The notes: generated from the letters alone by a model not told the origin. DNA of 61,401 nt from an uncultured Candidatus Saccharibacteria bacterium (GCA_964479945.1 CAYZNS010000005.1:1-61401); one strand, 5' to 3'; shown: positions 27,945-35,278, counted from the stretch's first letter. A program made the numbers and translations.

Positions 27945-30900
27945 ATGAATACAAATCTAGTATTTCCCGTAATGGCGTTTCAGAAGCGAATCGTGGAGAC
28001 AGTAACGAGGAATCAGGTTACGTTCATTGTGGGCGCGACCGCTTGCGGAAAGACGACGCAGGTGCCGCAGTTTCTGTTGGATGCCGTGTTTGCAGAGCAG
28101 GGGTTGATTGGGTGTACGGAACCGCATGTAGCAGCGGTGATTGCGGCAAGCAATTATATGGCGTGGCAGCGCGGCCTTCCCGTAGGGGAAGAAATAGGGT
28201 ATCACGTGCGCTTTAACAGGCGCCTTTCCCCGCGCACCAAGGTAAAGTTCGCAACAAGCGGCATTGTGCTGCGCGAGGCAATACTTGATCCGCAACTCTC
28301 GTCCTATCAATGCATGATAGTGGACGAAGCGCATGAGCGTGATGTCTTTAATGATTTTTTACTGGGATACCTTCGAAGGCTTTGCCGCGACGGCTCTTCC
28401 GCGCGCGCCGCGTTTCGGTTGGTGGTGATGAGCGCCACGCTTGACTGGCGTGCATTTGCCCGGTTTTTCCCAGACGCGGCTATTGTGCGCATTCCGCATA
28501 GAACGTATCCTATTCATGTCTCGTATCATCCGGTAGAAGACGGGGGGTATAGAAAAGCAATCTGCTCGCATGTGCGCCGCATTCACGCCTCTGGTGCCGA
28601 TGGCGACATTCTGGTATTTGTGCCGGGAGAGCGCGAAATACGGCAAGTGATAAAAGATATTGAGCGATTGCCGGTGCAAGGTATCCGCTGTTACCCGCTC
28701 TATGGCGGTATGGACCCGGAGCATCAGCAGGAGGTTTTTTTGAAAACGAAGGAGCGTAAGGTAATCGTGGCGACAAATGTCGCGGAAAGTTCCCTTATAT
28801 TCCGGGGAACGGTGATTGATTCCGGGCTTGCAAAAAAGGTAGCGTTTGATCCGGTGCTTGGTATTGAGACGTTGAACCTTGTTAACATCAGCCGGAGTTC
28901 TGCGGAACAGCGCGCGGGACGTGTAGGGCGCGATGCGCCCGGCGCCTGTCTGCGGTTGTATAGCGAGGAGGATTTTCTAACCCGCCCGGTGCACGACGAG
29001 CCGGAAATACAGCGCGCAGATCTTACATCGCTGGTGCTTGCCATGAAGTACCTGGGCTTGGGGCGTGATTTTGATTTTTTAACGCCTCCGCCTGCGGAAA
29101 ACTGGCAGGTGGCGGAAGACTATCTGCGCGCCATGGCGGCGGTTACGGAAGAAGGAACGCTTACTGCGCATGGCGCGCGCATGACGCGTATGGCGCTTGA
29201 TCCGATCCTTGCCCATTTTGTGCTTTGCGGCGTGAAATGGGGTTGTGCGGCCGAAGCCGTAACGATTGCAGCCATGCTTTCGGTGCCGCGGCTTTTTTAC
29301 CGCGAATTTTACGAAGGAGAAGAGTTTGCGCGGATACAAGCGTTGTTCCGGTGTGCACAGAGCGATCTTTATACCTTGCGGGCCGTATGGAAAGGGTACG
29401 AAGATGTGCAGTTCAATCCGCAGTGGTGCAGCCGGCATTTTCTCAACGCGAAGCTCATGCAGGCCGCACGGGATCTCCGGACGCAAACGTTGGAGTTTCT
29501 TCAACTGGAAGGATTGCTTAGTGAAGCGCCAGGAACCGATGACATGTTGGATCGCGCGATACTGGAAGGGTTTCGCGCGCATCTCTTGCGGTATCATCGT
29601 TCCGGGTGGTATCGCGTAATGCGCAATGGGTTTATGGTGAAACTTTCGCCCGGATCCGCATTGTTTGCGTTAACGCCGTCGTTTGTGGTGTCTGCCCAGC
29701 TATTTCGCACAAAAACGGTTCTTGCGCACTGGAATCATGCGGTGTCGTATGAACTGGTGCGGGAACTCTCACCGGAAGCGCTGCAATGGGAAAAGCCAGC
29801 TGCCGCTCTCCGACCGCTTCATGTGGAAGGAATACTGACTGTTGAAACTGGAAATAGTAGGCGGCTCGTGAAAGTGGATGTGGATCTTACGCGCTCATCC
29901 GGGCGGGAGTTGGAGATAGTGGATCGCGGAACGGCCATCCTGGAGGAGGACCGATGTCCGCTGCGCCTGCTTGCCCTTAATCCACAGACGGTTGCGGCAC
30001 TCCAAGAACGCGGCATCACCTCGCTCGCAGAACTACCCAATGCGCGCAAGGCGCTAGAGGACGGCGGGTATTCAGAGGAGGTGATTGCGGATATTGAGCA
30101 CGCCATACGGCGATTGGGGTATCTTCCTCATTCGCTGCCACGGGGCGCCGTGGAGGATGAGACGCGTGATCGTGAAGAGCAGAAGTTGGAGACGGGTACG
30201 GTGCCGGAGGCGGCAGATCATGATCGGTATCGGATGGAATTTCTCAACAAGCCGGTGGAGGCGCTGGGATGCTCCAAAAGCGCAAACATGGTACTGTGCG
30301 GAATAGACATAGCATCCGTAAAGGACCTTGTTTCTCTTACGGAAGAGGGATTCATCCAAAAAATCAGGATGTTTTTCCGCGCATCGCAGGGCTGGCCTAC
30401 AAATAACCGCAAAGGTGATGAAGATAAAGCGCTGCGGATTGTAAGGGAAGTACAAGCACAGATGCTGCGCGCCGGGCTTTCGTTTACACGTGATCCTTCC
30501 GAGCAGCGGCTTACGGTACGAAGATCGGTTATAGACATACCGTCGGCGATGGTGGTGAGCGAGGAAGAAGCGGCGCGGATAATGGGTGAAGAGTTCCCGC
30601 TTTTTAAGATGTACCGGGAAGCTTTAGTGGGTTCATTGCAAAAGGTGCAGGCGCGTAATGAGATAACAGTTGCTAACCAGCGGCTGCCTTTTAAATACGT
30701 GCGTGCATTTTTAAACCAGCGCGCCGCGCAAGAGAACCCCGCGCTTGAAAGTGACGATTTCTACCAGGAGGGCGTTATCGGGATGATGCGAAGCATTGAA
30801 TCGTTTGATTACACCCGCGGCGGCAGGTTTTCTACCTATGCCACGTGGTGGATCAAGCAATTTATGCAACGCATGCTGGATGATTGCGGACTGGTGCGCA

Positions 30901-34486: not shown

Positions 34487-35278
34487 GTGATAACGCTGGA
34501 TGAAATGCAATACATGGAAGACATCCAGTTGCTAAAACTTTCTCAAGCCAACCATGCCTGTTTTGAAATATTGGTAAGGCGTTACCGGCAAAAACTGTTT
34601 ATGAAGGCATTGAGCGTGTTGGGCGATAACGGGGAGGCAGAAGATGCGGTTCAGATAGCATTTCTGAATATATGGAGGCATGCCAGTTCCTATAAGCCGC
34701 GGATACATGCCACATTTGAGAACTTTGCCTACCGCGTGGTAACGAATGCCGCGATCAATATATACCGAAAGCGCAAGCGTATGCATGCGCGCGAGACATC
34801 CATTTCCTTTGAAGATGAAGCGTATCTGAACGTACGTGACGCAAGGGGTGATTCCAATAAGGAGAAATATGTTCATCTGCTGAAAGAGTGTGTTGGGCAA
34901 TTGCCTGCCGAGCTCCAGTCAATTATGAGACAGCGCCTAGAAGGATATTCAAATAAAGAGATTGTGTGTACAGAAGGTATTTCCGCCGCCGCTTTGAAAA
35001 AGAGATTTTTTCACGCACAAGCGGAATTGCGCGAAATAGTACGGCAGCGCCTGAAAGAAAAAACGCCCAATGCTATTGGGAGTGCTACTTCAGTGGATGA
35101 TATTGGCTTGTCGAGCCGGATTGTAACAATTTTGCGGAAGCGGCGCGGTATTGTCACGATAGAGGATCTTTGCAAGCACACCTACGAGCGCCTTCTTATG
35201 ACGCCCGGCATGGAAGCGCATTTGGTGGATCAGATATGCGAAAAATTGAAAAGATTGGGGTTGTCGCTATGTACATAA
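34487..35278 (+). CDS. ECF sigma factor fused to a C-terminal RNAP alpha-CTD-like domain
   Basis: AEDAVQIAFLNIWR (region 2), GYSNKEI...LKKRFFHAQAELRE (region 4), SVDDIGLSSRIVTIL...VTIEDLC...LKRLGLSL. GTG start after GAAAGGAGG. Confidence 0.8.
   Translation: MITLDEMQYMEDIQLLKLSQANHACFEILVRRYRQKLFMKALSVLGDNGEAEDAVQIAFLNIWRHASSYKPRIHATFENFAYRVVTNAAINIYRKRKRMHARETSISFEDEAYLNVRDARGDSNKEKYVHLLKECVGQLPAELQSIMRQRLEGYSNKEIVCTEGISAAALKKRFFHAQAELREIVRQRLKEKTPNAIGSATSVDDIGLSSRIVTILRKRRGIVTIEDLCKHTYERLLMTPGMEAHLVDQICEKLKRLGLSLCT

Follow-up and report, generated by a model that had tools for sequence, protein, structure and literature searches.

Five RNA polymerase alpha-CTD-like domains on two sigma factors and a small neighbouring protein in an uncultured bacterium

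The window analysed here is a stretch of 61,401 nucleotides assigned to an uncultured Candidatus Saccharibacteria bacterium (GCA_964479945.1, CAYZNS010000005.1:1-61401). Three of its genes encode proteins with segments resembling the C-terminal domain of the RNA polymerase (RNAP) alpha subunit (alpha-CTD). The first, P1, is a giant fusion of a DEAH-box helicase, a sigma70 factor and DnaA-type modules; the second, P2, is a small protein encoded immediately downstream; the third, P5, is a sigma factor of the extracytoplasmic function (ECF) type, and two RNase III genes separate it from P2 (Table 1). In textbooks, the alpha-CTD is where RNAP meets UP elements and class I activators, and it is regarded as a constant part of the bacterial RNAP core. 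To our knowledge, ordinary bacteria have this domain only once, at the end of RpoA. The initial annotation of the locus had proposed five such domains, two in P1, two in P2 and one on the ECF sigma, and all five are found about where it had placed them. HMM (hidden Markov model) scans of all six-frame open reading frames (ORFs) of the window revealed no sixth copy.

Sequence comparisons and predicted structures confirm the five segments as RNAP alpha-CTD-like, not generic helix-hairpin-helix (HhH), with support that is graded among them. The initial annotation had considered that they might resolve as generic HhH domains unrelated to alpha-CTD. This did not occur: for the C-terminal domain of P2 and the tail of P5, the Pfam family RNA_pol_A_CTD (PF03118, gathering threshold of 23.8 bits) outscored the generic comparison model HHH_5, and alpha-CTD chains were the best or nearly the only PDB matches. 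The tail of P5 scored 24.5 bits against PF03118 in the whole protein and 27.7 bits when excised (18.5 and 22.2 bits against HHH_5), and a phmmer search of the PDB sequences with this tail returned nearly all alpha-CTD chains (best E = 1.7e-4). The C-terminal domain of P2 also exceeded the threshold and matched nearly only alpha-CTD in the PDB (E = 7e-4); its ortholog in locus L015 reached 40 bits. Domain B of P1 scored 12.8 bits as a single sequence, which is under the threshold, while a profile of 22 orthologs matched alpha-CTD chains with E = 8e-8 and nearly nothing else, and PF03118 was detected in 14 of the 22 P1 orthologs (best 5.9e-10). These three segments are firm by sequence. The RNA_pol_A_CTD search proposed in the initial annotation therefore succeeded for the second domain of P2 and the tail of P5, and did not detect the other three in single sequences.

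The assignment of the two remaining segments, domain A of P1 and domain A' of P2, draws on weaker profile E-values, models of moderate confidence and their mutual homology. Neither has a Pfam match as a single sequence. The best PDB hit of the domain A family profile was an alpha-CTD (E = 0.0096), and that of a seven-sequence profile of domain A' was the alpha-CTD of T. thermophilus (1DOQ, E = 0.005). The two are homologous (hhalign 97.5%, E = 5e-12), the domain A profile also picks up the ECF tail (independent E-value of 0.0046), and the conserved pattern LxLSxxxxxxLxxxGIxTLxxL fits the first HhH motif of alpha-CTD. AlphaFold2 (AF2) models were made of the P1 module and of domain A. The model of P1 residues 620-860, with a mean predicted local distance difference test (pLDDT) score of 72.9, comprised a beta-hairpin leader (strands 6-16, 19-31 and 37-40) followed by two helical domains with a disordered spacer between them. 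Its top 37 Foldseek hits in the PDB were all RNAP alpha, with target-normalised template modelling (TM) scores of up to 0.85, and the two-domain module superposed on alpha-CTDs with a root-mean-square deviation (rmsd) of 4-5 A. Modelled alone (pLDDT of 70.6), domain A gave top hits that were all alpha-CTD (TM 0.64-0.75, rmsd 2.0-2.4 A, probability ~1) and ranked above Rad51-N and SAM folds.

Overall, the domains belong by sequence and predicted structure to the fold family of RNAP alpha-CTD (PF03118, SCOP a.60.3; PDB 1COO, 1LB2, 3N97, 1Z3E and 1DOQ), and they share with it two HhH-like motifs in ~60 residues (pattern LxLSxRxxNxL...GIxTxxDL...GLxL), a tether by flexible linkers and a tie to the transcription initiation machinery. 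They differ from it in that none of the five is in RpoA, their hosts being a helicase-sigma fusion, a 209-residue protein and an ECF sigma, and in that the 265 determinant for UP elements is not conserved.

The relationships among the five domains link P2 to both sigma factors. Residues 2-186 of P2 align with residues 626-805 of P1 (hhalign 97.4%, E = 1.1e-11, 173 columns), and by this alignment P2 is a free-standing paralog of the P1 unit of beta leader, domain A, spacer and domain B. The C-terminal domain of P2 nevertheless resembles the ECF tail far more than it does P1 domain B or genuine alpha-CTDs (39-61 bits in reciprocal HMM comparisons, versus 9-31 bits for genuine alpha-CTDs). Judged from these scores, the C-terminal domain of P2 has its closest relative in the ECF tail, and the reverse also holds; the two form one subtype, which we call LIMTP after its motif. 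Its consensus is xIxVLGLPxxxExILRxxRxVxTxRDLxxLGRDRLxMTxGMDExxxxxIExALxxxGLxL, with LRxxR, LRDL, GRDRLxMT and hD as conserved motifs, and its family profile matched alpha-CTD in the PDB with E = 1.1e-5 (44 of the 50 PDB matches being alpha-CTD). Free multi-copy alpha-CTDs outside RpoA, like those of P2, also occur in the tandem-repeat proteins P0135 (12 PF03118 repeats) and P0259 (4 repeats). The repeats of these proteins are of the canonical kind (LSVR...N, GIG hairpin), score 33-43 bits with a reference HMM of alpha-CTD and have no sigma link, whereas the two domains of P2 are divergent and unlike each other. P0135 (806 residues, 327 bits to PF03118) has a hydrophobic, signal-peptide-like N-terminus; P0259 has 301 residues and scores 199 bits.

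P5 has sigma2 and sigma4 at residues ~25-188, without sigma3, and ~75 residues beyond region 4 (TIGR02937 score of 60.8 bits, cut-off of 42.9). Its alpha-CTD-like tail starts ~10-15 residues past this region. We searched for the full ECF plus alpha-CTD architecture in a library of 1.84 billion representative proteins clustered at 50% identity. Among the best 150 hits, it was found, besides the cluster of P5, in P0127 and P0147 alone, and in each of the three clusters a giant sigma gene is found within 1-4 genes. Residues 177-258 of P5 (35015-35260) also gave a weak PADLOC match inside the BREX kinase PglW (E = 3.3e-4, positions 781-861 of 1403), which hints at an HhH/alpha-CTD-like module in PglW and probably has no functional meaning for P5.

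Table 1. Genes, domains and predicted signals of the P1-P2-P5 region, in positions of the window
Feature	Position	Strand	Details
Divergent promoter-like site	27872-27844	-	Consensus scan
Sigma70-type promoter-like site, TTGACA-16-TACAAT	27836-27863	+	5' of P1; 11/12 consensus matches
P1	27945-32054	+	1369 residues; helicase, two alpha-CTD-like domains, sigma70, two DnaA-domain-IV modules
HrpA/HrpB-like DEAH-box helicase part, P1 residues 1-610	27945-29774	+	TIGR01967 E = 2.4e-117
Beta-hairpin leader, P1 residues 626-665	29820-29939	+	AF2 model; aligns with P2 residues 2-45 (hhalign)
Alpha-CTD-like domain A, P1 residues 672-727	29958-30125	+	R265 equivalent Q681
Alpha-CTD-like domain B, P1 residues 766-848	30240-30488	+	R265 equivalent S779 (Arg in 6/22, Lys in 3/22 orthologs); N268 equivalent M782
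Sigma70 regions 1.2-4.2, P1 residues ~885-1150	30597-31394	+	Pfam r2, r3 and r4 all over threshold
Two tandem DnaA-domain-IV-like helix-turn-helix modules, P1 residues 1190-1262 and 1282-1349	31512-31991	+	
P2	32051-32680	+	209 residues; stand-alone paralog of the P1 middle module
Alpha-CTD-like domain A', P2 residues 45-105	32183-32365	+	R265 equivalent K54
LIMTP-subtype alpha-CTD-like domain, P2 residues 150-209	32498-32677	+	PF03118 27.0 bits (HHH_5 16.0); R265 equivalent P159 or E161, depending on the alignment
RNase III, 236 residues	32698-33408	+	TIGR02191 228.7 bits, over cut-off; in P1-P2 operon
RNase III-like paralog, 253 residues	33433-34194	+	TIGR02191 99.8 bits, under cut-off
Terminator-like hairpin	34208-34231	+	10-bp stem then T run; 3' of second RNase III gene
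Sigma70-type promoter-like site, TTGACG-17-TATAAT	34430-34458	+	5' of ECF sigma gene; read from sequence
P5, ECF sigma, 263 residues	34487-35278	+	Pfam Sigma70_r2, Sigma70_r4_2, RNA_pol_A_CTD
LIMTP-subtype alpha-CTD-like tail, P5 residues 202-261	35090-35269	+	R265 equivalent R211 (Arg in P0127 too, Pro in P0147)

Residue equivalences were taken from HMMER profile alignments to the alpha-CTDs of E. coli, B. subtilis and T. thermophilus, because hmmalign to a four-sequence alpha-CTD HMM misaligned the divergent segments. The DNA-contacting arginine (E. coli R265), singled out for checking in the initial annotation, is kept in the ECF tail and replaced in the other four domains (Table 1). N268 and C269 are not retained, and P1 domain B has a family-invariant methionine at the position of N268. 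The second hairpin (E. coli N294, G296, K298 and S299) is acidic in P1 domain A (S710, E711 and E712) and is replaced by an insertion of 10-25 residues in P1 domain B. In the LIMTP subtype, the hairpin glycine is a conserved Asp, Glu or Asn. G296 is thus represented by S710, an insertion, or Asp/Glu, and K298 by E712 or H245, being retained in the second domain of P2 only. Since neither the R265 set nor the second hairpin is conserved, canonical binding of UP elements is not supported. The LIMTP subtype has instead an alternative conserved basic surface formed by LRxxR, LRDL and GRDRL, the last of which falls at E. coli residues 285-289, the position of the 287 (activator-contact) determinant. 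In alpha-CTD, sigma region 4 and activators are contacted through the 261 and 287 determinants.

The main host of these domains, P1, is an unusual fusion. Its Pfam domains are DEAD, Helicase_C, HA2_C, Sigma70_r2/r3/r4 and Bac_DnaA_C, and NCBIfam places HrpA over residues 7-610 and an RpoD-like match over residues 888-1148, leaving residues 611-885, between the helicase and sigma70 regions, unannotated in both databases. The DEAH motif is intact and the helicase core and HA2 are present, with an OB domain seen in orthologs. The N-terminal 610 residues align with HrpA/HrpB, and the sigma part aligns both with RpoD (regions 1.2-4.2) and with its counterpart in MzaA. Unlike these proteins, P1 scores under the equivalog cut-offs (393 bits versus 723 for TIGR01967, over model positions 66-684 of 1284; 146-150 bits versus 354-555 for the RpoD models, which with MzaA were the best NCBIfam sigma models) and joins the parts in one polypeptide with alpha-CTD-like and DnaA-domain-IV modules. 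The second of the latter is recognised by Bac_DnaA_C (residues 1288-1349, 58 bits); the first, degenerate copy is homologous to it (hhalign 98.9%, E = 2.7e-17). An origin of P1 in the MZA defence system was considered and rejected: the sigma portion alone matches MzaA (85 bits in PADLOC, positions 453-656 of 683; 159 bits in NCBIfam, cut-off of 800), and no neighbour of P1 has a PADLOC match to the partners MzaB-E. Unlike that of the MZA system, the context of P1 is one of housekeeping genes (ParB and RNase III, with rpoA or rpoB near in relatives). P1 may be the housekeeping sigma of these organisms, and the fusion of helicase, sigma and DnaA-domain-IV modules is probably an undescribed, central component of Parcubacteria transcription.

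A search with full-length P1 retrieved 21 proteins of the same architecture (P0008-P0028; 1224-1383 residues, 36-50% identical), and the giant sigma family, P1 included, comprises at least 22 Parcubacteria proteins. The named relatives are metagenome-assembled genomes (MAGs) labelled "Parcubacteria group bacterium," and the window, too, is taken to be from a Parcubacteria bacterium. Type I genomes, as defined below, include Parcubacteria bacterium Greene1014_15 and GCA_040960375.1. Domain B was found in all 22 giant sigmas and domain A in 15, which include P1, lack a C-terminal LIMTP domain and are here called type I. The seven type II proteins have neither the beta leader nor domain A, and a LIMTP domain forms their extreme C-terminus (46-69 bits). 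A P2-like gene lies directly 3' of the giant sigma gene in 8/8 type I loci and is absent from the 3/3 type II loci examined. Our search for P2 homologs gave two relatives, and further P2-like genes were taken from the gene following the P1 orthologs. A profile search of genome contigs with a three-sequence P2 alignment had no match and a second such search matched two MAGs; a metagenome contig search with a P2 alignment had no match. A search with the P1 linker by itself (residues 601-900) also gave no match, even to a cluster mate of 98% identity, which we ascribe to the word filter of the search program. Gene order was conserved in every related locus examined: ParB is followed by an oppositely oriented gene for a Zn-ribbon/FtsK-gamma-like winged-helix protein, then by the giant sigma gene, the P2-like gene where present, and one or two RNase III genes.

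The LIMTP domain is therefore fused to the sigma factor in type II, without P2, and carried by a separate P2 in type I. This split-versus-fused pattern is classical Rosetta-stone evidence, read from gene content and architecture, for P2 acting together with P1, and it points to the module they share, the leader and domain A, as the means by which P2 would dock. One of the MAGs with such a cluster of giant sigma, P2 and RNase III genes of the Parcubacteria type, GCA_964487895.1 (CAZASM010000001.1; L006/L008), is titled "uncultured Gammaproteobacteria bacterium," a taxonomic label that is probably wrong. The giant sigma gene lies near the rpoA operon in L013 and near rpoB in L014.

The alpha subunit itself lacks the domain in relatives. 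In the type II locus L013/L016, the order is giant sigma, RNase III, IF1, S13, S11, S4, rpoA and L17, with the giant sigma gene ~3 kb upstream of rpoA in L013. The L013 rpoA gene (12928-13662 of that locus) encodes 244 residues matching only RNA_pol_L and RNA_pol_A_bac in Pfam and ending in ...EKKSAKAKKKSAK. A metagenome search with this protein retrieved 80 loci (L016-L095, 62-100% identity) with 78 complete ORFs, all of them encoding an RpoA of 223-261 residues (median of 246). Across 730 kb, there was no alpha-CTD-like ORF within 10 kb of rpoA save the giant sigma of L016 itself. The last 20 residues of the related RpoA proteins have a median of 45% Lys/Arg, and this Lys/Arg-rich tail is typical, being present in most copies. 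It could be a minimal non-specific DNA binder, or a dock for the acidic half of the LIMTP domain. Alpha subunits without CTD are described in the endosymbionts Hodgkinia and Tremblaya, in Euglena plastids and in Parcubacteria, the loss in the latter being said in passing (PMC8321222). Nelson & Stegen 2015 is cited for it, and a term search of the main text of that paper did not find the statement. The RpoA of the relatives is like those proteins in having the N-terminal domain only. Unlike in those cases, where the CTD was simply lost, CTD-like domains reappear here on sigma factors.

In locus L007 (63-2339), rplQ-rplM-rpsI, with which the rpoA operon ends, directly precede a gene for an ECF sigma with alpha-CTD. 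The proximity to this operon in both L007 and L013 makes an origin of the sigma-borne copies by local rearrangement of the rpoA 3' end compatible with the data.

Turning to gene organization, the start of P2 overlaps the stop of P1 (ATGA) and is preceded by the Shine-Dalgarno-like sequence GGAAGGAGG; the same four-base overlap was seen again in several related loci. Because of this overlap, the promoter-like site upstream of P1 and the terminator-like hairpin after the second RNase III gene, P1, P2 and the two RNase III genes look like one operon. The ECF sigma gene and an overlapping ORF of 178 codons look like a separate one. The promoter-like and terminator-like sites are consensus matches alone, and the coordinates of the site upstream of the ECF sigma gene come from reading the sequence, the consensus scan having given a neighbouring register. 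The 178-residue ORF (35236-35772, +) shares 43 nucleotides with the 3' end of the ECF sigma gene and has no Pfam or PADLOC match. Its product is a candidate for a partner or anti-sigma of P5, and L001 and L002 have the same layout. The second RNase III copy has EFLGG where the first has EFLGD, MLKAIVAA where the first has AFEALVGA, and Lys in place of the catalytic Glu of the first. With EFLGG for EFLGD and Lys for this Glu, it is probably catalytically dead. In L011 (5231-6514), both RNase III domains are in one fused protein of 427 residues, reminiscent of an intramolecular heterodimer.

Divergent from P1, the gene at 26604-27872 (-) encodes a Cys-rich protein of ~400 residues with repeated CxxC zinc-ribbon-like motifs, the orthologs of which have a C-terminal FtsK-gamma-like winged helix; the gene is kept between ParB and the giant sigma in all loci. 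Translation probably begins at an ATG at ~27803, which follows a Shine-Dalgarno-like GGAGGAG, and not at the TTG at 27872. At 22029-23681, the window encodes a ResIII/SNF2-type helicase with an HNH-associated repeat, which strongly matches type IV methyl-directed restriction enzymes in PADLOC (E = 8.5e-45). A dense nucleotide-metabolism cluster occupies ~36750-42340, with thymidylate kinase, thymidylate synthase, dihydrofolate reductase, three dUTPase/dCTP-deaminase-like genes and dCMP deaminase, and an IS200-like Y1 transposase gene is inserted within it at 38598-39431. The thymidylate and dUTPase genes had suggested a phage origin of the window. We rejected it because the window also encodes SufB/D/S, CysRS, PolX, CTP synthase, a P-type ATPase and a histidine kinase, and is thus cellular, not viral.

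We propose that the five domains are sigma-borne surrogates of an alpha-CTD that this lineage would have removed from RpoA, a reading to which we give a probability of about one half. In a wider and somewhat more tentative form, a Parcubacteria lineage would have shifted the alpha-CTD module from the RNAP core onto its sigma factors, the domain for contact with upstream promoter DNA or activators being supplied for each sigma separately, fused or through P2 as an adaptor, and no longer a constant of all holoenzymes, and the housekeeping-type sigma would in addition have been welded to an RNA helicase and to DnaA-type modules. The LIMTP domain would reach the C-terminal side of sigma by three routes: covalently on the ECF sigma, just behind region 4.2; covalently on the type II giant sigmas, after the DnaA-domain-IV modules; and in trans on P1 in type I, through the translationally coupled P2. 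In the last case, P2 would dock on the giant sigma via the beta-hairpin leader and domain A that both possess, and domain A of P1 is best explained as the docking site. Region 4 sits on the -35 element, with alpha-CTD beside it on UP/-35 DNA (PDB 3N97, a structure which is also among the Foldseek hits of the P1 models). A short tether behind region 4 would therefore put the LIMTP domain just upstream of the -35 element, the usual place of alpha-CTD, and the two DnaA-domain-IV modules of the giant sigma would occupy the same position. As the DNA contacts of alpha-CTD are not conserved, the LIMTP domain has several candidate partners there: a regulator, the Lys-rich tail of alpha, or upstream DNA if bound in a novel mode. 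The earlier idea that these fusions act as built-in activators is compatible with the data in a modified form, as sigma-tethered alpha-CTD surrogates.

Several points weigh against this proposal. The rpoA gene is not in the window, nor in the type I loci looked up, and the 62 nucleotides upstream of L17 in L007 are uninformative, so a CTD-less alpha in the window organism would hold by extension from its relatives. Moreover, the sole locus linking a giant sigma to a CTD-less rpoA is a type II one, from a lineage to which P1 does not belong. The canonical DNA-contact set (R265, N268, C269, N294, G296, K298 and S299) is not conserved, and the Asp, Glu or Asn in the LIMTP hairpin argues, at the level of sequence, against minor-groove binding in the style of alpha-CTD. 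Domains A and B of P1 precede sigma region 1.2, in the place that region 1.1 would take, and for this reason the argument on a position upstream of -35 does not cover them. Finally, the AF2 models are moderately confident (pLDDT 71-73) and the Foldseek E-values weak (0.02-1), the latter because the domain is small.

The same losses of DNA-contact residues, together with the acidic second hairpin, would also suit pure protein-protein modules serving sigma autoregulation or assembly, as with the ECF41 and ECF42 extensions that fold back on sigma2/sigma4, P2 being then a regulatory subunit, anti-sigma-like or activating. We consider this unlikely, yet it deserves serious attention. According to PMC7826278, regulation by C-terminal extensions ranks second in frequency among ECF sigmas, and the extensions usually take the place of anti-sigma factors. 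P5 resembles such sigmas in its sigma2-sigma4 core, its extension of more than 50 residues and the lack of a recognisable anti-sigma gene beside it (the downstream 178-residue ORF having no Pfam match). The other conserved surface (LRxxR...LRDL...GRDRL) overlaps with where E. coli has its 287 determinant, and the split/fused dichotomy suits a docking role equally well. This explanation nevertheless leaves unexplained why an alpha-CTD-derived domain was chosen where relatives have lost alpha-CTD. The ECF tail also follows region 4.2 by very few residues, and R265 is kept in 2/3 ECF tails. The extension types named in the available text of PMC7826278 are SnoaL-like (ECF41/56/294), TPR (ECF42), Cys-rich (ECF238), DUF1835 and transmembrane; an alpha-CTD-like extension such as that of P5 is not mentioned among them. 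Quite improbable in our view is that the domains are nucleic-acid (HhH) handles holding RNA or R-loops for the DEAH helicase and the RNase III proteins during or after transcription, without a role in initiation. HhH domains are general binders of the nucleic-acid backbone, the two copies in P1 come straight after the helicase HA2/OB region, and the giant sigma, with P2 where present, is grouped with RNase III or RNase III-like genes in every locus. However, the hairpin residues for HhH backbone contacts are not conserved, the same subtype occurs on the helicase-free ECF sigma and, in type II proteins, at the very C-terminal end, past sigma and the DnaA-domain-IV modules, and every occurrence found is attached to, or encoded beside, a sigma factor.

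The initial annotation had also raised the possibility that free or sigma-fused copies act as decoys that titrate activators. Such copies would draw activators or UP-element DNA away from the genuine alpha-CTD of RNAP. P2 is small and built only of such modules, and could in principle compete with the copies of P1 or P5. We give this idea very little credence, because the relatives have no genuine alpha-CTD to compete with (no complete related RpoA exceeds 261 residues) and because the fusion of the P2-type domain to sigma in sister lineages indicates cooperation and links P2 to the giant sigma as a partner, not a competitor. P2 is, in addition, translationally coupled to P1, and the UP-binding residues are missing. 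It would be just as surprising to us if P1 residues 672-727 and P2 residues 45-105 were convergent small helical bundles that inflate the count of five. Such an over-call is suggested by the lack of an own Pfam match for either, by profile E-values against the PDB of only 0.005-0.01, and by a domain A model with pLDDT of 70.6 and Foldseek E >= 0.02. Against it, alpha-CTD chains dominate both the sequence and fold hit lists, above other HhH and SAM folds, the domain A profile detects the ECF tail, and the first HhH motif of alpha-CTD is matched.

Our literature searches turned up neither sigma-alpha-CTD fusions nor P2-like proteins nor a helicase/sigma/DnaA-domain-IV fusion, and nothing relevant on alpha-CTD-like domains or HhH extensions of ECF sigmas. 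The component domains are all known. If sigma-borne surrogates have indeed taken the place of the alpha-CTD, upstream promoter recognition and activation would be sigma-specific in this lineage, and a major uncultivated group would have a differently partitioned bacterial initiation machinery. The locus would then be a natural experiment on the purpose and modularity of alpha-CTD. It would bear on gene regulation in bacteria of the candidate phyla radiation (CPR), which have very few transcription factors, and may offer design ideas, in the form of sigma-tethered recruitment domains, for synthetic orthogonal sigma systems.

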